Assembly: GCA_902767245.1 (NCBI GenBank)
Contig: CACXGO010000018.1
Span: 27,708-91,707, forward strand
Source: an uncultured Erysipelotrichaceae bacterium
GTDB taxonomy: Bacteria > Bacillota_I > Bacilli_A > RF39 > UBA660
Direction of reading: 5' to 3'
Length of the DNA: 64,000 bases
The notes below the pieces were generated by a model. It searched no databases and was not told the DNA's origin. It saw only the letters and a list, made by a program, of their open reading frames with translations. The stretch's first letter is position 1. Every line of letters begins with the position of its first letter. This document shows positions 7,245-33,656 of the stretch, in pieces. Position numbers and translations under genes: made by a program.

Positions 7245-9162
7245 TTTTTTGCTTTTGATTTTTTTAATATTTTATATTAAGAATTATAATTATATTTCAA
7301 AATATAGTAATCAAAAAGAAATAACAGGTGTTGTCACCAAAATCACTAAAAGTAGTGATAGTATTAATATAATTTTAGATGCTAAAGAAAAAGTGTTACT
7401 AACTTGTTTTAAGTGTGATTTTAATTATGAGGTTGGTTCAATTGTAAGTTTTAAAGGTTATTTTAATGAAATAAAAGGTAGTTCTAATTTTAATTTGTTC
7501 GATTATAAAAAGTATTTAATGTCTTTAAAAATATATAAAAATTTTATCTTTACAGATTATAAATATATCAAAAAAAGTAACAAGTTTATTTACAAAGCAT
7601 ATAATATTTTGAATGATAGAATTAATGAATTAAAATCAAAAACATTTTTAAAATCGATGATTTTAGGCGAAACTAGTGAATATGGTGATATTTATGAAAT
7701 TTATAAACTAAATGGAATTGTTCATTTATTTGCAATTTCAGGAATGCATGTCGGAATTATTTCATCAGTATTAATTTTTATTTTCAAAAAATTTTTGAAA
7801 TTAGGCAATTTTGCTTACATAATAATATTTCCCATTTTAATTTTTTATATGTTAATTATTAACACTCCCTCAATAATAAGAAGTGTTTTAATGTTTATTA
7901 CTTCATCAATATCAAAAATATTTAAACTGAAAATAAGTAGTTTAAATATTTTGTTTTATTTAGTTTCAATTAATTTAATTATTAATCCTTATGTTATTTA
8001 CAATATGGGTTTTTGTTTAAGCTACATAATTGTTTTTTATTTAATGATTAGTTCTAAAAAAGTAGCAAAAATAAAAAACTATTTTTTAAAATTATTAACA
8101 CTTTCAACAATTTCTTTTTTGGCCAGTTTTCCTATAATAATTAATAGTAATTTTGAATTCAATTTACTTACACCGCTTATAAATGTTTTAATTGTTCCAT
8201 TTGTTTCTGTTATTTTATTTCCACTTGCATTATTGACTCTTTTTTTACCAATATTTGATAATATCTTATTTTTATTATTAAAAGGTTTTGATTATTTAAA
8301 TATATTTTTATCTAATTATTCAATAATTATTAATGTTGCATATATAAATATCTATTTAAACATTTTCTATTATTTAATTCTTTTGGTATCTTTTTATAAA
8401 ACAAAGCATATATATTTATTGCTTGTCTATTTATCAATTTTAATTAACATAAAAAACTTAAATTTTAATTCTTATTTGATTATGATTGATGTTGGTCAAG
8501 GAGATTCTATTTTTATAAAAAATTATTTTGGTGAAAATATTTTATTAGATGCTGGTTCTAAAGAAAATTCTGCCAAAAACATAATTATTCCATATTTAAA
8601 GTCTTTAGGAATTAATAGAATTGATCGTTTTATAATTTCCCATGGGGATAAAGATCATATAATTGGAGCTAAAGACATTATTAAAACTTTTAATGTTTTG
8701 CAAATATATTTAAATAGTTATAAAAATACTGATTATGAAAATGAAATAATAGATATAAGTGAAACTAACTTTATAAGTCAAAATACATATATTAATGAAC
8801 ATTTACATATATTTAATTATTATCAAAATAACGAAAATGATGATAGCTTAATTACATATTTGGTTGATTATGGAATTCTTTGTATGGGAGATGCAAGTGA
8901 AAATGTTGAAAATAAAATAAATTTATCAGACATCAATATTTTAAAAGTTGGACATCATGGTTCAAAGACGAGTACAAGTGAAAATTTCATAAAAAAGATT
9001 AATCCCAAAATATCATTAATTTCGGTTGGTTTAAAAAACAAATATAATCATCCAGATAAAGAGGTTTTAAACAATTTAAAAAACAGTTTAGTTTTAATGA
9101 CAAGTACAAATGGAATGATTAAAATCAATTTGAAATCATTAAAATATGAAACATATTATTAG
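7213..9162 (+). CDS. comEC: DNA internalisation competence channel ComEC/Rec2 with a C-terminal metallo-beta-lactamase domain
   Basis: Polytopic membrane core containing HLFAISGMHVG. C-terminal MBL motifs IDVGQGDS, ISHGDKDH and VGHHGS. The start could also be at 7198. Confidence 0.85.
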   Translation: MKNSRIIYLFNFLLLIFLIFYIKNYNYISKYSNQKEITGVVTKITKSSDSINIILDAKEKVLLTCFKCDFNYEVGSIVSFKGYFNEIKGSSNFNLFDYKKYLMSLKIYKNFIFTDYKYIKKSNKFIYKAYNILNDRINELKSKTFLKSMILGETSEYGDIYEIYKLNGIVHLFAISGMHVGIISSVLIFIFKKFLKLGNFAYIIIFPILIFYMLIINTPSIIRSVLMFITSSISKIFKLKISSLNILFYLVSINLIINPYVIYNMGFCLSYIIVFYLMISSKKVAKIKNYFLKLLTLSTISFLASFPIIINSNFEFNLLTPLINVLIVPFVSVILFPLALLTLFLPIFDNILFLLLKGFDYLNIFLSNYSIIINVAYINIYLNIFYYLILLVSFYKTKHIYLLLVYLSILINIKNLNFNSYLIMIDVGQGDSIFIKNYFGENILLDAGSKENSAKNIIIPYLKSLGINRIDRFIISHGDKDHIIGAKDIIKTFNVLQIYLNSYKNTDYENEIIDISETNFISQNTYINEHLHIFNYYQNNENDDSLITYLVDYGILCMGDASENVENKINLSDINILKVGHHGSKTSTSENFIKKINPKISLISVGLKNKYNHPDKEVLNNLKNSLVLMTSTNGMIKINLKSLKYETYY

Positions 9163-15303: not shown

Positions 15304-16068
15304 ATGCAAATATTTATTTATATTATGATATTTGTATTTGGACTTGTTTTAGGGTCGTTTTATAATGTTTTAGGCTATCGATTACCAAAAAAACAATCGA
15401 TAGTTTTTCCATCTTCACATTGTCCAAATTGTAAGCATAAATTACATTTTATAGATTTAATTCCAGTTTTATCTTATGTTTTATTAAAAGGAAAATGTAG
15501 ATATTGCAAAAAAAAGATTTCAATTATATATCCAATTATTGAACTATTAACAGCCATTTTATTTACACTATCTTATTATTTGTACGGATTTTCAATAAAT
15601 TTTGGTATTTCGATAGTATTTTCATCAGTTGCAGTTATTATAATTGCCTCAGATATAAGATACTTAGTAATTAATGATGAAATACTAGTTATTGGAGGTA
15701 TTTTGATTATATTACTTTTAGGCATCAATGGAGATTTTAAGAAAGTATTAGATTTAATTATAAATGGTGTTATTAGCTTCTTAATCATGTTTTTAATTAA
15801 AATTATTGCTGATTTTGTATTTAAAAGGGAAGCTATGGGTGGTGGAGATGTGAAGTTACTTACATTAATTGGAGCACTTGTAAGCTACCCAATGTCTATT
15901 ATGACGTTATGCTTATCTGCATTTATTGCTTTCCCATATGCTATTTTTGTTTATTTTAATAAAAATGATCATGTTCTTCCCTTAGGGCCATTTTTATGTA
16001 TTTCTGGATTGATTATCTATTTTTTAGGTATTAATTTTAATGATTTAATGCAAATAATGGCAAAATAA
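15304..16068 (+). CDS. Prepilin peptidase (A24 family; PilD/ComC)
   Basis: N-terminal CPNC...CRYC zinc motif, a polytopic membrane core, and catalytic-Asp contexts ASDIRYLVINDE and GGGDVKLL. Confidence 0.9.
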   Translation: MQIFIYIMIFVFGLVLGSFYNVLGYRLPKKQSIVFPSSHCPNCKHKLHFIDLIPVLSYVLLKGKCRYCKKKISIIYPIIELLTAILFTLSYYLYGFSINFGISIVFSSVAVIIIASDIRYLVINDEILVIGGILIILLLGINGDFKKVLDLIINGVISFLIMFLIKIIADFVFKREAMGGGDVKLLTLIGALVSYPMSIMTLCLSAFIAFPYAIFVYFNKNDHVLPLGPFLCISGLIIYFLGINFNDLMQIMAK

Positions 16069-17503: not shown

Positions 17504-18064
17504 ATGAAAAAAAATGGTTTTATGGTTGTTGAGTGCGTAATTGCATCAGTTGTTGTCTTAACGGTTATAATAGTTTTATATACTCAAATAAAATCTGTAA
17601 TTAGAACTTATAATAAAAGTTATAATTATGACAATGTAAGCAGTCTTTATTCACTTTCAAATTTTCGCTCATTTGTATTAACTGGCGATAATTATGATAA
17701 ACTTGTTTCAAAATATCAAGAAAATAAAAATACTAATAGCTCTGTCTGTGGTAAAAATTATGTGTTTGTTTCTTGCAGTATTTTTAATGCAACTAATTAC
17801 TGTGACACACTTTTAAATGTAATGGGAATAACAACTACAAATATACGTCCACAGCAAATAATTTTTACTTCTTCAGATTTAAATGAATTAAAATCATGTG
17901 ACTTAAAACATGAAGCGGGGATGTTAAAAGATTCATTTGTTGATTACATTTTGTCATTAAATGTTGACAAAGAAGAAAATAAATATATGTTGATAGCAGA
18001 ATTTGACGATAGTACGCTTGCATCTATCAATCTATATCGAGCAAGCGAGGTGCAGAATGGTTAA
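17504..18064 (+). CDS. Prepilin-type (class III signal) minor pilin-like protein, 186 aa
   Basis: N-terminus MKKNG/FMVVECVIASVVVLTVIIVLY: Gly at -1, Glu at +5 and a hydrophobic helix. Confidence 0.7.
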   Translation: MKKNGFMVVECVIASVVVLTVIIVLYTQIKSVIRTYNKSYNYDNVSSLYSLSNFRSFVLTGDNYDKLVSKYQENKNTNSSVCGKNYVFVSCSIFNATNYCDTLLNVMGITTTNIRPQQIIFTSSDLNELKSCDLKHEAGMLKDSFVDYILSLNVDKEENKYMLIAEFDDSTLASINLYRASEVQNG

Positions 18065-21707: not shown

Positions 21708-23231
21708 ATGGATTTAGAACAAATAAAAGAGTTTTTAAAAAAATACATTGTTTATATTTTAATTGGTTTAATACTAATTTTTGTAATACTTTTAATAATT
21801 CCAAGTAAAACTAACAATAGTTCTAAAGTACAAAAATTATATTTTTCTTTATATGGTGATGAAAAAATAACACTCGAAAAAGGTGAAACTTATAAAGAGC
21901 CAGGTTATAATGCATATGATACTGTTCAAGGGAATTTAAATAATAAAGTAATTATAACTGGCCAAGTTGATTCAAATACTGTTGGAGTTTATGAAATAAT
22001 ATATATGGTTACAAATGAAAAAGGTGAAACAAAGACTTTAAAAAGAATAGTAACAGTAGTTGATAAAAAAAATGAAGAAATAATTATAAATGCTACTATT
22101 TCACCAAGTGAGATAACTAACAAAGATGTTACTATTAATTTTTCGGTGACAAGTGGAAGCTATAAATTTATATTAGATCCAGATGGTAATATTAACTATT
22201 CAAACAATGTAAAATATATTGCCAAAGAAAATGGTGAATATGATTTTAGTGTAAAAAATCAAGATGGAACAATAGTTGAAAAAACTATTAAGATATCAAA
22301 TATTGATAAAATAAAACCAACTGGTACTTGTCAAGCTAATATAAAAAATACAAAAACAAATATAACAGTTCAGGCAAGTGATAATTTTGAAATAAAAAAA
22401 TATGAGTTTATACTTGATAATAATAAATATGAATCAAAATTAAATTCATATGAAATTTCAAAAGAAATAAAGAGTGCTAATGTAATTATTTATGATAAAG
22501 CTTCCAATAGTACAAATATCACTTGCAAAATAATTGATAACAGATCATCATCACCATCACCAACACCAACAATTCCAACAACTCCAATTAGTGGGTCTTA
22601 TTATAATGCCGATTTAAAGGCACATGGTCTTAAATATATTATTTATTATCCAGGTAATTTAAATCTTCAAGTTAAGAATCCATTAGTTGTTTATTTACAT
22701 GGAACAGGTGAGTGTAATAATGATATTAGTACTTTAGAAAATGTAACTTTTGTAAAAAACATGAAATCTAAATATTATACCGATGCTGTTTATTTAGCTC
22801 CACAATGTGTATGTAGCGGATACTGGGATTATTGCCTTGATAATTTAAAATCATTAATAGATAAAGTGGTAGTTGATTATAATATAGATACCAAAAGAAT
22901 ATCAATTACTGGAGCTAGTGCAGGTGGTATAGGTGTATATAGTATTATTTCTAAATATCCAAGATTTTTCTCCGCTGCTGTAGTTGTTGCTGGTCGTAAT
23001 AAAGACGGCATTATAAGCAATCTTATATATACTCCGATTCGACATTATCACGGAACACTTGATACTGCTGTATCTTATACAAATGCAAAAGAAAATGTTG
23101 AAGCAATAAAAAGAGCAGGTGGTAACATAGAATTTATATCATTACAAGGTAGGGGACATGATATAAGTGTAACAAATGACGTTTATAACCATACTAATGC
23201 TATTAGTTGGATGATATCTCAAAAGAGATAA
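21708..23231 (+). CDS. Membrane-anchored surface protein: Ig-like (DUF5011-type) domains, P/S/T linker and a C-terminal alpha/beta-hydrolase (esterase)
   Basis: N-terminal TM. The DUF5011-like segment is GYNAYDTVQGNLNNKVIITGQVDSNTVGVYEIIYMVTNEKGE and the linker is SSSPSPTPTIPTTP. The hydrolase has VVYLHGTGE, nucleophile elbow GASAGG and GRGHD. Confidence 0.65.
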   Translation: MDLEQIKEFLKKYIVYILIGLILIFVILLIIPSKTNNSSKVQKLYFSLYGDEKITLEKGETYKEPGYNAYDTVQGNLNNKVIITGQVDSNTVGVYEIIYMVTNEKGETKTLKRIVTVVDKKNEEIIINATISPSEITNKDVTINFSVTSGSYKFILDPDGNINYSNNVKYIAKENGEYDFSVKNQDGTIVEKTIKISNIDKIKPTGTCQANIKNTKTNITVQASDNFEIKKYEFILDNNKYESKLNSYEISKEIKSANVIIYDKASNSTNITCKIIDNRSSSPSPTPTIPTTPISGSYYNADLKAHGLKYIIYYPGNLNLQVKNPLVVYLHGTGECNNDISTLENVTFVKNMKSKYYTDAVYLAPQCVCSGYWDYCLDNLKSLIDKVVVDYNIDTKRISITGASAGGIGVYSIISKYPRFFSAAVVVAGRNKDGIISNLIYTPIRHYHGTLDTAVSYTNAKENVEAIKRAGGNIEFISLQGRGHDISVTNDVYNHTNAISWMISQKR

Positions 23232-23258: not shown

Positions 23259-23327
23259 GTTTATATAAATATTTCTTTTTTGATTACTTTATGATAATAT
23301 ATATTTAGAAAATAAGGTGAGTGGCTT

Positions 23328-25262
23328 ATGCGTAAAAATGGCTTTACTTTAGTAGAAATGTTAACGGTTATAATAATATTAGTCATAATAAGTTTGCTTG
23401 CTATTTTTTCAATAACTGCGACTGTTAAAAGCTCAGCGGAAAAATTATATAAAGTTCAGATAGATAGCATTATTGATGCAAGTAGAACATATGCCATAAA
23501 AAATAATTCTATTTTGGCTGACAGTACTGAGATAACAATATGTGATTTAAAAAGATCAAGTTTACTTGATAATGATCTTAAAAATCCTAAAACTGAAGAA
23601 CCATTTGATAATGATTTAATAATAAAAATTATTCGTGATAGAGATGGTGAATTTAAGTTTCAATTTGATGGCATTAAAAAAATGGAAAATTATAATTGCG
23701 ATTTAGATGTTTCTGTTAGTTTAAAAGGGAATTCCCCATTATATGTAAGCCTTGGTTCAATATATGTAGAGCAAGGTATAAATGTAAAAAGAAAAGATTT
23801 AAATTGTACTTATGGTCATGGAACTGCAAGTAATACAGCCTGTTATTATGATTATGTTAAAAGTGGTTCATATAGTTCTGCTTTAAATGGAAATAAATAT
23901 AATAAAGTTGGCACATTTGAAGAAAGTTATAATGTTACTAGTGATTCATTTACGACCTCTATTACAAGAACAATAATAGTTCAAGATAAATCTGCACCTG
24001 CTATTTCAGTTAATTACAAAGGAACCGTTTACAATAATCCTTTTACTGCGAGAATTATAGAGTCTGATTCACCAGCAACTTTTTCTTGCATTGCAGTGGA
24101 TGATTATGATGGTAATGTTGCTTGTAACATTTTGAAAAATGATTATAATAACACTAAAAATCCAGGAACATATGAAATCATTTATAAAGCAAGTGATAAA
24201 AACAATAATGTGGCAACTTTTACAGTTAATGTAACAGTTTTACCAAAAAACAAAAATTTAATTGTTGGATTAAATGTAGACAATGTAAATTGGACAAATC
24301 AGAGCGTTAATTTTAAAATTTATCCATTATACGATAAAAATGGTTGTTCAAAATATAATTATGATTTTGGAAATGGAATTTGGGTTGAAAATGATACCAG
24401 TGAAATATTGAGAAATGGGACTTATAATGTCGGTATTAAATGTGAAAATGGTAATGTTGAAGACTACTTAACATATAGAGTTACTAACATAGATAAAGAT
24501 CCGCCAGTTTTTTCGCAAAGCGAAATAGGAATTAATGTTCAACCAAAAGTGTCTGGTAAAAAAGTTATTATAAATACAACAAATAACATAAAGTATTACA
24601 TTGCAAATGACACAGTTGTCTTATCAGATTCAACTGGAGCCTATGATAGTGGAACGGGTGTTGCTGGTTATAATATTTATATCAATGATGAGATTAATTC
24701 TATAAATGAAATTAGTGCTGAAGGAGTATATGAAATAAAAATTAATGCTTATGATTATGCTTCGAATCAAAGTGATCCTATACTCGCAGGATATGTTGTA
24801 ATAACAAAAAGTATACCAACATGTACATTTTCAAATAGTACAACCAATGCAATATTTAATAATAATGGTGATGTTACATACAATAACGGAATTTATAAGT
24901 TGACTAATAATAATTATCCAATAACAATTTCTTACAGATTTTCGTGCTCTTATGAATACTTCGAAAATGCTGATGTTTTAACAAGACCAAAGCTAAAAAA
25001 ACTTGCAAATTTTTATTTAAGAGAGCAATCGGGTATAAATGGGCAGTATAATCTTGTTGAGTTAGGATCATGGGTATTAGAAGGTGCTCCTGTTTGTGAA
25101 AATAGTAAATGTGTTAAAACTTATAATAATATGATAACACTTAGAATTAATGGTTTAGATGATATAGCATATTTAAATTTAGAAAAAAATTCATTTTGTG
25201 ATGATTTAGATAACTGTAATAATCGTAAAGTTCAATCGCAGGCGCTTGCAAAAGCAAATTAA
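23328..25262 (+). CDS. Modular type IV pilin, 644 aa: a canonical pilin module plus a ~530-aa Ig-like extension
   Basis: The prepilin signal MRKNG/FTLVEMLTVIIILVIISLLA is textbook. Residues ~1-115 look like a complete ComGC/PilE-size pilin (ITICDLKRSSLLDNDLKNPKTEEPF). This is followed by a DUF5011-like segment (AVDDYDGNVACNILKNDYNNTKNPGTYEIIYKASDKNNN) and further beta-rich, Cys-containing domains. Confidence 0.8.
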   Translation: MRKNGFTLVEMLTVIIILVIISLLAIFSITATVKSSAEKLYKVQIDSIIDASRTYAIKNNSILADSTEITICDLKRSSLLDNDLKNPKTEEPFDNDLIIKIIRDRDGEFKFQFDGIKKMENYNCDLDVSVSLKGNSPLYVSLGSIYVEQGINVKRKDLNCTYGHGTASNTACYYDYVKSGSYSSALNGNKYNKVGTFEESYNVTSDSFTTSITRTIIVQDKSAPAISVNYKGTVYNNPFTARIIESDSPATFSCIAVDDYDGNVACNILKNDYNNTKNPGTYEIIYKASDKNNNVATFTVNVTVLPKNKNLIVGLNVDNVNWTNQSVNFKIYPLYDKNGCSKYNYDFGNGIWVENDTSEILRNGTYNVGIKCENGNVEDYLTYRVTNIDKDPPVFSQSEIGINVQPKVSGKKVIINTTNNIKYYIANDTVVLSDSTGAYDSGTGVAGYNIYINDEINSINEISAEGVYEIKINAYDYASNQSDPILAGYVVITKSIPTCTFSNSTTNAIFNNNGDVTYNNGIYKLTNNNYPITISYRFSCSYEYFENADVLTRPKLKKLANFYLREQSGINGQYNLVELGSWVLEGAPVCENSKCVKTYNNMITLRINGLDDIAYLNLEKNSFCDDLDNCNNRKVQSQALAKAN

Positions 25263-25280
25263 TAGAAAGGAATGATATTT

Positions 25281-26744
25281 ATGCGCAAATTTTTGACATT
25301 ATTAGTATTACTAGTGGCGTTTTTACCAAAAATTTCAGCAACTTCATTAACCACTGAAACTAATGCCTTTAATAATCGAATCAGCACGGAAACTATTGAT
25401 TTAAAGGCTGCATTAAATAGTTTTAATAATTATTTAACAAACAATTCAAATAAAATATCTAATGCGTTAGATATCAATTTGATTAAAACTATCGCTACAA
25501 ACTTAAAAAATAATAATTATACTGCAGCTTTTTCAGCTCTAGAAAATGCTGTAAATGATGATAATTTAACCAATTTAAATCTTTCATCAAAAATTAATAA
25601 TTATTTGAATTTAAAATCTGATTTAATTAGTTTTGTAAATACAAACAAAGCAAAATTAGATGTTGAAACAGGAACTGATGAAGGACTTGAATGTTCACTT
25701 TCATTACTTGACCAAATAAAACAATCATTTAATGAAGTAAAGCCAATTTTCTCAACAACAATTGAAAAGCTAGGAAAAACATTTTCAACGGTTATTAAAA
25801 ATCATATTGCAGAAAAGAAAAATATTAATAATAGTGAACTTAATAACATTATAGATGAATATAATGAGTTAGCTTCATTGTTAGCAAATTTGGTAGAAAA
25901 ATATTACAATTCTTTAGATGATTACAAATCAACTTTTAAAGTTATAAGTGGAAGCGAAAAATTATTTGAATCGTTAATTAGAAAGAAATTTAAAACAGAT
26001 TTAGATAATTTGCTTGAAAATGCTGAAGCTACTTTAAAAGCCCCAGTTAATGAGTTTATTAATAAAAGATGGGATATTTTAGAAAATGATGTAACTGAAC
26101 TTATCGAAAGTGATAAAACAATACCAGAAAAAAATGAAAATATATATTCAAAAATAGATAAAGTTGAAGCAGTAAATGAAAAATTCATTAATGCAATCAA
26201 TAATATTATTGGTAAATTAGATATTAATTCAATTAAAGATAAATTAAATAAAGTATTAAATCGAGGCAAAAATGAATTTGCTCATGCAATTGAATATTTG
26301 GAAGCTCACCTTATAATAGGTGAATATGATATTGAATTGGTTGATGGTCATGATGCAAAAGTTACCATTGATCGTGCTAAAGAATTAATTATTTTGGATC
26401 GCTTGTTTGGAATTCAAGAATTTAAGAATCAAATTAGATTAGCAAATAATTTAGGAACATTAAAGTTTAATCTTGGTACTTATACTTATGTTGCTAATAA
26501 ATCAACAGTATCGGTAGAAGATAATAATGAAACGAAAAAAGAATACAAGATAATTGTTAAAGGTGATGTAAATAATAATGGAAATGTTACAATATCCGAC
26601 GCAGTTGAAGCAGCATATTATTCGTTAAATGATCGTGATCTTGATGAGTATCAAGTACTTGCAGCTGATATGAATAATAACAATACTGTAACTATTTCTG
26701 ATGTATATCTAATTGCTTTAAGAGCTTTGGAAGGAGGTAATTAA
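25281..26744 (+). CDS. Secreted helical protein with a C-terminal type-I-like dockerin
   Basis: Signal peptide MRKFLTLLVLLVAFLPKISA and ~400 aa of helix-prone sequence. The C-terminal duplicated Ca-loop/helix pair is GDVNNNGNVTISDAVEAAYY...AADMNNNNTVTISDVYLIALRAL. An alternative start is at 25272. Confidence 0.6.
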   Translation: MRKFLTLLVLLVAFLPKISATSLTTETNAFNNRISTETIDLKAALNSFNNYLTNNSNKISNALDINLIKTIATNLKNNNYTAAFSALENAVNDDNLTNLNLSSKINNYLNLKSDLISFVNTNKAKLDVETGTDEGLECSLSLLDQIKQSFNEVKPIFSTTIEKLGKTFSTVIKNHIAEKKNINNSELNNIIDEYNELASLLANLVEKYYNSLDDYKSTFKVISGSEKLFESLIRKKFKTDLDNLLENAEATLKAPVNEFINKRWDILENDVTELIESDKTIPEKNENIYSKIDKVEAVNEKFINAINNIIGKLDINSIKDKLNKVLNRGKNEFAHAIEYLEAHLIIGEYDIELVDGHDAKVTIDRAKELIILDRLFGIQEFKNQIRLANNLGTLKFNLGTYTYVANKSTVSVEDNNETKKEYKIIVKGDVNNNGNVTISDAVEAAYYSLNDRDLDEYQVLAADMNNNNTVTISDVYLIALRALEGGN

Positions 26745-26745
26745 A

Positions 26746-27873
26746 ATGAAGAAATTTCTTTTACTATTTGTAAGTTTGTTTATGCCATTTTTGGTTAATG
26801 CGGCCAGTGTTAGTATGACTGGAACCACTACTATTTCGCCAGGTGAAACAGTTGCACTTCCAATTATTGTATCTGATAGTAATGAAATACATGGTGTACA
26901 AATGGTTATGACATTAAGTGGATCAGATTTTGACTTATTAATTGATAAAACTGTTTCATCTTATCAAATTCTTGTAAAGAAGAAATTAAGTAATGGATAT
27001 GGTTTATCTATAATTAGTACAAGTAAAAAAATTGCAAATAAAGGAACACTTGCTAAAATATATATTAAAGCTAATTCATCAGCAACACCTGGGAACAAAG
27101 CAACTTTAACTTTAAAGGATATAATTTTTGCAACAGGAGCTGAACTTAATGATACAAAAGCAAGTAATTATTCAAAAACGCTTACAGTAGGTGCAGTAAA
27201 ATCAACAAACAATTATTTAAGTTCATTAAAAGTTGAAGGATATAATATCTCATTCAATAAAAACACAACTGCTTATACAATAAATGGTGCAACAAGCGGA
27301 AGTGCTCTTAAGGTAACAGCAAATGCTGAAGATGAAAAAGCAAATGTTAAAATTAATTCACCAAAATTAGTTTCTGGAAAAAACACAATTACAGTAGTTG
27401 TTACCGCTGAATCTGGAGCTAAAAGAACATACACAATTACTGTAAATGTCCCAACCGAAACAGTTGATAAGAGTGCAATAGATTTAAAAACATTAGAAGT
27501 TAAAGGCTATGATATTAAATTTGATCCTCAAAATACAGATTATGTCTTAAATGTAAACAATGATGTTGAGAAAGTAGAAATTAATTCCACATTAAAAGAT
27601 GAAACATCATCTAAAACCATGAATGGACCAGATAAATTGCAAGTTGGTGAGAACTTGTATACAATAACTGTAACTGATAAGTCTGGGAATAAAAAGGTTT
27701 ATAAGTTGACAATTAACCGCTTGGCAAAAGAAAAAGAATGTGAAGTATGTAAAGTATGTGACGAGTGCGAAAGCGGAAGTTCAATTTGGAAATTTTTAGC
27801 AATAGCCCTTGTAATTGTTACGTTAGCTGAAACAATTTATATGGTATCAATGCGTGACAAAAAGCAATTTTAA
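26746..27873 (+). CDS. Membrane-anchored cohesin protein: cohesin-like domain, two cadherin-like beta-sandwich domains, a Cys cluster and a C-terminal TM
   Basis: Signal peptide. Cohesin-like pattern SVSMTGTTTISPGETVALPIIVSDSNEIHGVQMVMTL...GTLAKIYIKANSSATPGNKATLTLKDIIFA. There are two copies of the LSSLKVEGYNISFNKNTTAYTI...GKNTITVVVTAESGAKRTYTITV type. Then ECEVCKVCDECESG, then the TM FLAIALVIVTLAETIYMV and tail RDKKQF. Confidence 0.6.
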   Translation: MKKFLLLFVSLFMPFLVNAASVSMTGTTTISPGETVALPIIVSDSNEIHGVQMVMTLSGSDFDLLIDKTVSSYQILVKKKLSNGYGLSIISTSKKIANKGTLAKIYIKANSSATPGNKATLTLKDIIFATGAELNDTKASNYSKTLTVGAVKSTNNYLSSLKVEGYNISFNKNTTAYTINGATSGSALKVTANAEDEKANVKINSPKLVSGKNTITVVVTAESGAKRTYTITVNVPTETVDKSAIDLKTLEVKGYDIKFDPQNTDYVLNVNNDVEKVEINSTLKDETSSKTMNGPDKLQVGENLYTITVTDKSGNKKVYKLTINRLAKEKECEVCKVCDECESGSSIWKFLAIALVIVTLAETIYMVSMRDKKQF

Positions 27874-32010: not shown

Positions 32011-32445
32011 ATGAATTTGATTAATTTTTTAGCCGTAGGAGTAAAATGTGGCGATACTGAAATTGGTGGGATGATTGTAGGAATTATTGGGACTATTTAT
32101 AATGGAATTAAGATAGGGGTGCCAATAATCTTAATAATTGTTGGTATGGTTGGAATGGGGAAGGCCATAGCCCAACAAAAAGAGGATGAAATAAAGAAAG
32201 CCCAAAGCACATTAATTAAACAAGCAGTAGCAGCAGTAATAGTATTTTTAATGTTTCAATTAGTACAACTTGGAATGAGTGCTTTAAATGTTAAAAACGA
32301 TTCAAATTGGCAATGTGTTAAAATGATATTAATTCCACCAAAAGATGGTGACGACTGTAAAATGGATGACGGTAATGGTGGCGGATGGAGAATTCTCAAT
32401 GAAAATACCAATGATGCAATGTGGGAATGCCAAAGTAGGGGATAA
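32011..32445 (+). CDS. Two-TM hairpin small protein, paralog 1 of 4 (TrbC/VirB2-like topology)
   Basis: GGAGG RBS. Conserved core IYNGIKIGVPIILIIVGMVGMGKAIAQQKEDEIKKAQSTLIKQAVAAVIVFLMFQLVQL. The C-tail is variable and contains WQC...C...WEC. Confidence 0.65.
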   Translation: MNLINFLAVGVKCGDTEIGGMIVGIIGTIYNGIKIGVPIILIIVGMVGMGKAIAQQKEDEIKKAQSTLIKQAVAAVIVFLMFQLVQLGMSALNVKNDSNWQCVKMILIPPKDGDDCKMDDGNGGGWRILNENTNDAMWECQSRG

Positions 32446-32451
32446 AATTCA

Positions 32452-32886
32452 ATGACTATGATTAATTTCTTAGCGACAAAAGGAATAATTTGTGCAGGAA
32501 TCAGATTAGAAGGAGATATTGTCGGAATTATTCGAACCGTTTATAATGGAATAAAAATAGGAGTTCCTTTAATCTTGATTTTTGTTGGAATGTTTGGCAT
32601 GGCCAAAGCAATCACTATGCAAAAGGAAGATGAAATAAAAAAAGCTCAGAATTTACTTGTTAGACAAGCAGTAGCAGCAGTAATAGTATTTTTAATGTTT
32701 CAATTAGTACAACTTGCAATGAGTGTAATTAAAGTAAAAAATTCATCAAATTGGTCTTGCGTAAAAGCTGTTTTAGTTGAACCAGATTCTAAAACAAAAT
32801 GTTATACAGATGATGGAAAAGAAGCTTATTGGGGCTCTGACCACTTAACTGATTCATATTGGCAATGTGATGGAGCGGCTGGTTAA
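32452..32886 (+). CDS. Two-TM hairpin small protein, paralog 2 of 4
   Basis: Same core (VYNGIKIGVPLILIFVGMFGMAKAITMQKEDEIKKAQNLLVRQAVAAVIVFLMFQLVQL). It shares a 53-nt identical run with paralog 1 and long identical runs with paralog 3. Confidence 0.65.
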   Translation: MTMINFLATKGIICAGIRLEGDIVGIIRTVYNGIKIGVPLILIFVGMFGMAKAITMQKEDEIKKAQNLLVRQAVAAVIVFLMFQLVQLAMSVIKVKNSSNWSCVKAVLVEPDSKTKCYTDDGKEAYWGSDHLTDSYWQCDGAAG

Positions 32887-32918
32887 AAACTTATTATAAA
32901 TAAAATTGAGGTGATATA

Positions 32919-33263
32919 ATGTTTTTCTTAGATGAAATGTGTGGTGCATGTGCATCCGCTGGTCTTGGGAATATTCCTAATCAGGTAGTTAATATAATAC
33001 ATATTGTTTTTGTAGCAATAAAAATAGGAGTTCCTTTGATTCTAATTTTTGTTGGAATGTTTGACATGGCTCGCGCAATCACTCTACAAAAGGAAGATGA
33101 AATAAAAAAAGCTCAAAATTTATTGGTAAGAAAAGCAGTAGCAGCAGCTTTAGTGTTTTTAATGCTTTCTTTAGTCAGCACATTATTTAGTGTTGTTGGC
33201 GGTGAAGGATCAGAGAATATTTGGAGTTGCGTTAATGCACTTTTAAATGGTATATGTTCATAA
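32919..33263 (+). CDS. Two-TM hairpin small protein, paralog 3 of 4
   Basis: GAGGTGA RBS. Core AIKIGVPLILIFVGMFDMARAITLQKEDEIKKAQNLLVRKAVAAALVFLM. The N-tail has CGAC and the C-tail has WSC...ICS. Confidence 0.65.
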   Translation: MFFLDEMCGACASAGLGNIPNQVVNIIHIVFVAIKIGVPLILIFVGMFDMARAITLQKEDEIKKAQNLLVRKAVAAALVFLMLSLVSTLFSVVGGEGSENIWSCVNALLNGICS

Positions 33264-33293
33264 AAAGTATCAATGATACTTTTTGTTTTTTTT
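33263..33293 (+). terminator. Rho-independent terminator after paralog 3
   Basis: AAAAGTATC-AAT-GATACTTTT followed by a T-rich run. An extended -10 TGTTATAAT (TATAAT at 33309-33314) follows and could drive paralog 4 separately. Confidence 0.7.
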
Positions 33294-33332
33294 AAAATAA
33301 TTTTATGTTATAATGATTTTGGTGACTAATCT

Positions 33333-33656
33333 ATGTTTTTGGATATTATGTGTGCTGGAACTGAACTTCCAGATTATGTTGGATATTATGTATCATTAAT
33401 ATATTTTGCAATACGTATTTGTGTTCCAATTTTATTAATTATTGTTGGAATGATTGATATGGGAAGAGCAATTGTCTCTAAAAAAGAAGAAGATGTTAAA
33501 AAAGCTCAAGGACTATTATTAAAAAAAGTAGTTCTTGGAATAATAGTATTCTTACTTCCTTACTTTGTTGAATTAGTTATTAAGATATTTACTAAAGATA
33601 ATGAATTAGTTGATTGTATTAAAAAACTTATAGATTATAGAACAAATTTATTTTAG
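33333..33656 (+). CDS. Two-TM hairpin small protein, paralog 4 of 4 (most divergent)
   Basis: Core AIRICVPILLIIVGMIDMGRAIVSKKEEDVKKAQGLLLKKVVLGIIVFLLPYFVELV. It has its own promoter-like box and terminator. Confidence 0.6.
   Translation: MFLDIMCAGTELPDYVGYYVSLIYFAIRICVPILLIIVGMIDMGRAIVSKKEEDVKKAQGLLLKKVVLGIIVFLLPYFVELVIKIFTKDNELVDCIKKLIDYRTNLF

Follow-up and report, generated by a model that had tools for sequence, protein, structure and literature searches.

How does a type IV pilin come to be 644 residues long, and what would such a protein do? The question is raised by an open reading frame (ORF) on the forward strand of contig CACXGO010000018.1 from an uncultured Erysipelotrichaceae bacterium, within a 64-kb stretch (the window; 25.9% GC) that we analysed as a whole. 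The ORF starts with ATG and runs from 23328 to 25262, exactly as originally predicted. We find that its product is a complete small pilin followed by about 520 residues of immunoglobulin-like (Ig-like) and Cys-rich beta domains; family models, homology of the alpha1 helix, free-standing relatives and AlphaFold2 models all bear out the earlier suggestion of such a fusion. The existence of modular pilins accounts for the many functions that type IV filaments, simple in themselves, have gained, yet few of these proteins have been studied (PilB, PilC, CofB, ComZ). We propose, with a confidence that lies slightly above even, that this one is a minor subunit at or near the filament tip, where it would act as an adhesin.

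The protein begins with a canonical class III signal peptide. Its N terminus reads MRKNG/FTLVEMLTVIIILVIISLLA, where the slash marks the predicted cleavage site, and two family models score it above their curated cut-offs (Pfam N_methyl, 21.5 bits against 21.2; TIGR02532, 24.3 bits against 16.3), in agreement with its first description as a textbook prepilin signal. Across 23 aligned homologues (see below), Phe at +1 and Glu at +5 are invariant, and position −1 is nearly always occupied by Gly or Ala. When the window was scanned twice for the motif in all six frames, just three class III signal peptides emerged, at 17504 (G/FMVVE), 18057 (G/LSVVE) and 23328 (G/FTLVE), so that the canonical FTLVE does occur just once. 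Without the leader, the mature protein has 639 residues, a mass of 71.2 kDa and a computed pI of about 5.0.

Residues 1–125 are a complete, autonomous pilin. When residues 1–128 were cut out and used as a profile against the PDB and 1.84 billion representative proteins, 8/8 PDB matches were type IV pilins (best, Streptococcus sanguinis PilE1, E = 2.9e-4), and 9,546 related proteins were found among the representatives, with 1,399 reaching E <= 1e-10. Among the best 150 of these relatives, about 55 are 111–148 residues long and match end to end, and the remainder (157–1,672 residues) carry the module at the N terminus. The original prediction held that the first ~115 residues already make up a full pilin, and this end-to-end alignment of residues 1–125 with free-standing proteins confirms it. 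For example, over residues 1–125 the module shares 52% identity with the 122-residue free-standing pilin P0045, whose ORF ends in a genuine TAG two codons past the second conserved Cys and is directly followed by another pilin gene, and 49% with a second such pilin, P0190 (123 residues). What forms the head of the module constitutes the whole head of free-standing pilins of 117–130 residues, and the segment ITICDLKRSSLLDNDLKNPKTEEPF, singled out earlier as pilin-like, is a hallmark of this small-pilin family (ITLxxLKxxGLIxxxxKNPKTxxxF). Because P0045 stops exactly at the fusion point, domain grafting can be seen here in a clean natural case: a small pilin module of Gram-positive type, very widespread and free-standing in about one-third of the best 150 relatives, serves as the carrier for an unusually long subunit of six modules.

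Comparisons with solved structures agree with this assignment along alpha1, and a head is predicted after it. A wider profile that adds 51 small free-standing pilins matched pilins or pseudopilins, mostly major subunits, in 20/20 PDB hits at E <= 0.0035 (geopilin, 6.9e-10; PilE1, 5.2e-9; Myxococcus xanthus PilA, 3.5e-7; GspG, 4.8e-5; MshA was also matched), with alignments that span positions 2–60, the entire alpha1 helix. AlphaFold2 models the module alone at a predicted local distance difference test (pLDDT) score of 87.6, with a 51-residue alpha1 helix (residues 8–58) and strands at residues 66–70, 97–103 and 109–118; the head strands after alpha1 reach pLDDT 87–93, giving a predicted globular head after alpha1, as the original prediction had anticipated. 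A Foldseek search of the PDB with the isolated module returned nothing significant (top, Dichelobacter nodosus FimA pilin, E = 1.3, template modelling (TM) score 0.39), and fold searches cope poorly with long-helix "lollipop" models such as this one. Because of that search result, we take the head fold from the prediction, with family membership as its support.

Everything beyond the pilin module appears to be an array of beta domains. In the AlphaFold2 model of the full-length protein (pLDDT 83), alpha1 and the small beta head are followed by five beta-sandwich domains, D2–D6 (Table 1). D2 and D3 both belong to the Ig-like family PF16403 (DUF5011), on which we take the InterPro entry IPR032179 to be built. 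PF16403 matches the whole protein with 37.3 bits (E = 2.8e-9, best stretch residues 256–304) and also matches each of the two domains scanned alone; the single DUF5011-like Ig domain noted earlier was therefore correct and understated. An insertion in D2 holds the Cys160/Cys172 pair. D4, D5 and D6, each scanned alone, gave no Pfam match, and a profile search of the PDB with D6 gave none even at E <= 10. PF16403 is found in 23/23 family members, some of which also match Big_13, InlK_D3, Big_3_3, HYR or PKD, all of them Ig-like folds.

A fold search with the whole chain recovered tandem-Ig arrays (E = 1e-9 to 1e-6) at TM scores of just 0.10–0.19, among them the S-layer proteins SbsB, Sap and EA1, cadherins, the GhpA grappling hook, the Ig domains of PrgB and an ice-adhesin extender. 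We read these matches as evidence for a stalk-like multi-Ig architecture in the model, and not for membership in the matched families. In particular, we rejected an S-layer protein of the SbsB, Sap or EA1 type, as the chain has no SLH or other anchoring domain and TM scores this low are generic to tandem Ig domains. D3–D4 are colinear with residues 69–204 of the neighbouring secreted esterase (ORF 21708..23231; 27% identity, E = 7e-7), the NIDKxxP linker included, a resemblance in sequence which suggests that stalk modules are common to surface proteins of the source genome.

The architecture is conserved as a unit, and its distal end evolves fastest. Besides the protein itself, a homology search brought up 22 homologues that match it over the full length (640–678 residues, 35–48% identical, E = 1e-86 to 1e-180), all from uncultured gut Bacilli and far beyond chance. 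Mean pairwise identity is 63% in the pilin module, 46% in D2, 45% in D3, 47% in D4, 41% in D5 and 34% in D6; within the module, the head (residues 59–125) is as conserved as alpha1 (61% and 60–71%, respectively). The paired cysteines remarked on in the original prediction comprise three pairs that are invariant in 23/23 homologues (72/124, 254/266 and 499/540) and three that co-vary, with both members present or both absent (160/172, 590/595 and 624/630). Such co-variation in the alignment is what would be expected of disulfide partners in an extracellular protein. The gene order of the block to which the pilin gene belongs is kept in four independent relatives (metagenome-assembled genomes (MAGs) of uncultured gut Bacilli/Firmicutes). 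Within this conserved block, the modular pilin (35–47% identity) and a dockerin protein (34–56%) are the most divergent genes, compared with 79–86% for the assembly ATPase, 69–78% for RecD2 and 74–83% for a tyrosine kinase.

Related pilins also occur farther afield. A locus in a Hadza MAG from another gut Firmicute lineage (L035, 600..13927) carries three tandem paralogous N_methyl + PF16403 pilins of 418, 426 and 413 residues, and two more N_methyl proteins of about 300 residues lie within the same 13 kb. Modular-pilin expansion on this pilin carrier is therefore not confined to the lineage studied here.

How does the protein relate to known modular pilins? More than 1,200 modular pilins in 264 architectures have been counted, and Dataset S1 of that survey lists the combination IPR012902-IPR032179, a prepilin motif with IPR032179 behind it, in three proteins with one copy of the latter and in one protein with two (Raynaud et al. 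2021). These entries were counted there and not studied, and our literature search found no mention of DUF5011 together with pilins. Relative to those entries, the present family adds three unassigned beta domains and is conserved, syntenic and about 640–680 residues long. As in the modular pilins defined in the survey, a complete N-terminal pilin module is followed by extra modules, here two PF16403 domains and three beta-sandwiches. PF16403 itself is also found outside pilins, as in the D3–D4-like cassette of the neighbouring esterase. The protein thus extends the known class as an unusually long, six-module member and is not a new principle.

Two characterised members of the class, PilB and PilC of S. 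sanguinis, are minor pilins of modular build located at the tip (PMC8179133, PMC9934059). PilC consists of a pilin, an Ig-like fold and a concanavalin A (ConA)-like lectin (PMC9934059). It resembles the present protein in its monoderm host, its class III signal peptide and its order of short pilin, Ig-like module and distal module; it is also encoded alongside PilA, which is small and atypical, and the modular PilB, a set that the 186-, 571- and 644-residue proteins of the window parallel. The two differ in that PilC has one Ig-like and one lectin module where our protein has five beta-sandwich domains, D6 is without a lectin signature, and no sequence similarity is detectable beyond alpha1. 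Furthermore, the S. sanguinis locus encodes two small major pilins, PilE1 and PilE2, and further machinery genes, none of which is seen in this window. PilB is a pilin fused to a von Willebrand factor A (vWA) domain (PDB 7B7P); it is an adhesin, and the tip is the one place in the filament where it is predicted to be accommodated (PMC8179133). The concept of a functional module grafted onto a pilin carrier by a short linker would be common to both. However, the pilin module of PilB is larger (about 180 residues with two beta-sheets, against about 120), its effector is a vWA domain with a metal-ion-dependent adhesion site (MIDAS) instead of a beta-sandwich array, and adhesion has been demonstrated for PilB whereas for the present protein it is proposed. 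A further likeness is to CofB of enterotoxigenic Escherichia coli, a large minor pilin of the type IVb class with extra all-beta domains (a beta-repeat and a beta-sandwich) after its pilin module, which sits at the tip and initiates assembly (PMC8179133). CofB differs in being a trimer from a type IVb system of a diderm host and in serving as an adaptor for a secreted protein, and we detected no sequence relationship between the two.

The window also encodes machinery of the kind that serves type IV pilins. Genes for a prepilin peptidase, an assembly ATPase and a platform protein lie 6–10 kb upstream of the pilin gene. The ATPase scores 482 bits on GspE, 479 on PilB and 273 on ComGA, each under the model's own equivalog cut-off. 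The platform protein has an N-terminal extension of about 280 residues with membrane segments and an Asn-rich region, and its T2SSF part comprises residues 282–683.

These components suggest how the protein would be used. The peptidase would cut the five-residue leader after Gly5 and probably N-methylate Phe1, the hydrophobic N-terminal half of alpha1 (alpha1-N) would keep the protein in the membrane, and the ATPase and platform protein would build it into a type IV filament by way of residues 6–125. Five beta-sandwich domains directly after the presumed Cys72–Cys124 staple would make for a bulky subunit, and we therefore propose that it is of low abundance and tip-proximal, a placement possibly shared with the atypical 186- and 571-residue pilin-like proteins. 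D2–D5 would form a rigid, disulfide-stabilised stalk of roughly 15–20 nm, with the fast-evolving D6, a candidate ligand-binding module, as its adhesive end. The adhesin role is one that we infer from architecture and evolutionary rate.

We favour a minor, tip-located subunit because the characterised modular pilins PilB and PilC are minor subunits for which the tip is the only predicted place, because solved major pilins of type IVa pili (T4aP) have 111–161 residues (PMC11046646), because sister lineages pair small pilins of the same family with large modular ones, and because one small atypical and two large pilins in the window mirror PilA/PilB/PilC. The pairing is seen at four loci of sister lineages (L007, L008, L009 and L012), where small pilins of the module family stand beside large modular pilins, an arrangement expected for major and minor subunits.

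Several observations count against this placement. Motif scans found no small major-pilin gene in the 64-kb window, nor within 10 kb on either side in four relatives; scans of nine related loci, a search with P0045 and the context of P0045 show that small pilins exist, with none tied to the genome of a 644-residue family member. Among the three pilin-like genes of the window, moreover, the one with the most major-pilin-like N terminus is the modular pilin itself. It lies outside the operon of the ATPase and the two other pilin-like genes, at the head of a tightly spaced cohesin-dockerin/capsule block, and neither PilM/N/O nor PilT is visible in the window. Finally, the fold search with its isolated module was not significant (E = 1.3 for FimA), and D4–D6 resemble no adhesin or lectin family in the Pfam searches or, for D6, in the PDB search. 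The missing small pilin is weak evidence because related genomes scatter small pilins among housekeeping genes. For example, on the complete 1.49-Mb MAG chromosome that holds L008 (9992..15539), a small pilin of the module family lies between gap and pgk in a gap/pgk/tpi context, with a 611-residue modular pilin 3 kb away, and in another organism such a pilin directly follows ftsK (L038, 10001..10372).

Some of the same observations would fit a different role, that of major polymerising subunit, in which the alpha1 helices would make up the filament core, every subunit would project its five-domain Ig-like arm and the densely decorated filament would resemble a "bottle-brush". The canonical G/FTLVE is found in this protein alone among the three pilin-like genes, most of the PDB entries that match its alpha1 are major pilins, its closest module relatives are 117–130-residue free-standing pilins that resemble major subunits, the pilin module is strongly conserved, and the scans around it found no small pilin to take that role. 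We nevertheless consider a major subunit of this kind quite improbable. Its 639 mature residues would be without precedent, given that 208 residues already counts as "unusually large" and quoted survey ranges extend up to 279 (PMC11046646); in PilB, a module attached right behind the pilin head collides with adjacent subunits everywhere except at the tip (PMC8179133); and the housekeeping contexts just described blunt the argument from the missing small pilin. Were it true, the protein would matter much more, as the subunit of the lineage's only type IV filament, one bearing thousands of five-domain arms and built from a subunit three times the size of any characterised major pilin.

Alternatively, the protein may be processed as a pilin and then remain anchored in the membrane by alpha1, or form a short pseudopilus-like stub, displaying its Ig array at the cell surface much as some archaea use class III signal peptides to display binding proteins. 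This would suit the minimal machinery of ATPase, platform protein and peptidase with none of the accessory genes named above, the position of the gene at the head of a block of cell-surface genes (dockerin, anchored cohesin, Wzz, tyrosine kinase, CpsB and sortase) and the fact that S-layer proteins top the whole-chain fold search. However, TM scores as low as those of the fold matches would be given by any tandem Ig array, a head as conserved as alpha1 fits packing in a polymer better than service as a membrane anchor, the assembly ATPase is itself highly conserved (79–86%), and the bacterial precedents of this architecture are filament subunits. We therefore regard surface display as unlikely, if worth keeping in mind, and retain a minor, tip-located pilin as the favoured interpretation.

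Only 4 kb separate the pilus machinery from an upstream gene for a ComEC-type DNA-uptake channel (7198..9162; Competence and Lactamase_B domains), which raises the question of whether the same filament system also serves transformation. More specifically, the machinery could be that of a competence (Com-type) DNA-uptake pilus with the 644-residue protein as one of its minor pilins. Besides ComEC, the three-gene set resembles ComGA, ComGB and ComC, and the best equivalog match of the protein's N terminus is ComGD (NF040982, 34.4 bits). This match falls far under the cut-off of 70 bits and is limited to alpha1 (residues 3–61; model positions 1–59), and we rejected ComGD membership on these grounds. 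The ATPase and platform protein score higher on GspE/PilB and PilC than on ComGA (273 bits against a cut-off of 300) and ComGB (159 against 240), and no comG-like operon order is seen. The known minor pilins of Com systems are of small size and have no Ig-like array. A Com-type pilus with this protein as a component is thus a very remote prospect.

The protein is a defined candidate for adhesion to gut surfaces or particles in bacteria that cannot yet be grown, here an uncultured, AT-rich lineage of gut Bacilli. Coordinates of the gene, its modules and the surrounding pilus and surface genes are collected in Table 1.

Table 1. Sequence features of the modular pilin and of the pilus and surface genes around it (positions in the window)
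Feature	Coordinates	Strand	Description
Platform protein, PilC/GspF type, 683 aa	13239..15290	+	T2SSF E = 4.6e-55; GspF and PilC models match aa 280-683
Prepilin peptidase	15304..16068	+	PF06750 (A24 N-terminal) E = 1.1e-36; PF01478 (Peptidase_A24) E = 2.8e-14
Assembly ATPase, PilB/GspE type, 438 aa	16096..17412	-	T2SSE E = 1.4e-126
Pilin-like protein, 186 aa	17504..18064	+	MKKNG/FMVVE; motif scans; candidate small minor pilin
Second large pilin-like protein, 571 aa	18057..19772	+	MVKLNNKG/LSVVE; motif scans; 8-nt overlap with the 186-aa gene
Shine-Dalgarno-like AAGGTGA	23314..23320	+	7 nt upstream of the ATG; read directly
Gene for modular type IV pilin	23328..25262	+	ATG start, 644 aa; ORF read from sequence
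Leader peptide MRKNG, 5 aa	23328..23342	+	Prepilin-peptidase cleavage predicted after Gly5
Pilin module, aa 6-125	23343..23702	+	alpha1 aa 8-58, small beta head, invariant Cys72 and Cys124
D2, aa 126-221	23703..23990	+	First PF16403 Ig-like domain, 28.4 bits scanned alone (cut-off 27)
D3, aa 222-306	23991..24245	+	Second PF16403 Ig-like domain, 30.5 bits alone; invariant Cys254/Cys266
D4, aa 307-390	24246..24497	+	Beta-sandwich, AlphaFold2 pLDDT about 86-93
D5, aa 391-494	24498..24809	+	Beta-sandwich; Big_13, Big_3_3 or InlK_D3 matches in some homologues
D6, aa 495-644	24810..25259	+	Distal Cys-rich beta domain, most variable part of the protein
Secreted 490-aa protein with C-terminal dockerin	25272..26744	+	Mostly helical; 9-nt gap; PF00404 E = 6.5e-6, aa 430-481
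375-aa cohesin protein	26746..27873	+	Cohesin, two cadherin-like domains, C-terminal membrane anchor; 1-nt gap

The modular pilin gene is separated from the preceding gene by 96 nt, which suggests that it has its own transcription start. In DNA as rich in AT as this, scanning for promoters and terminators gave no useful signal (78 promoter-like sites, against 79 in shuffled sequence), and an Rfam scan of the window gave no match. Downstream, the dockerin and cohesin genes follow directly, and the pair is apparently co-transcribed with the pilin. The cohesin of the 375-residue protein matches PF00963 with 27.0 bits (cut-off 24.1) when residues 20–153 are scanned alone, its cadherin-like part matches PF12733 (E = 2e-16), and the protein also contains a CxxCxxC motif. 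In a weaker variant of the bottle-brush reading, itself quite improbable, the pilin and the cohesin-dockerin pair would form a pilus-linked surface assembly. The genes for Wzz, the tyrosine kinase, CpsB and the sortase come after the cohesin gene.

Upstream, both other pilin-like genes keep company with the ATPase gene: the 186-residue one adjoins it in the related loci L001 and L003, and the 571-residue one keeps its place next to it in relatives. Sequence searches found no Pfam or PDB relative for either product. The 571-residue protein is unrelated to the modular pilin beyond the signal peptide and may represent another modular pilin, one whose module is novel. The 3.5 kb between its gene and that of the modular pilin hold ylbJ, a ylbL-like gene and the secreted esterase, in which PF16403 and Big_7 Ig-like domains are joined to a PHB-depolymerase/esterase domain. 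In a related locus (L004, 3741..9894), four tandem paralogues of this Ig-esterase lie just upstream of the pilin gene. Elsewhere in the window (32011..33656), a tandem array encodes four small membrane proteins of 144, 144, 114 and 107 residues, paralogues with a conserved core that are present in three to five copies in relatives and resemble the T4SS_pilin family only faintly (E = 0.05).

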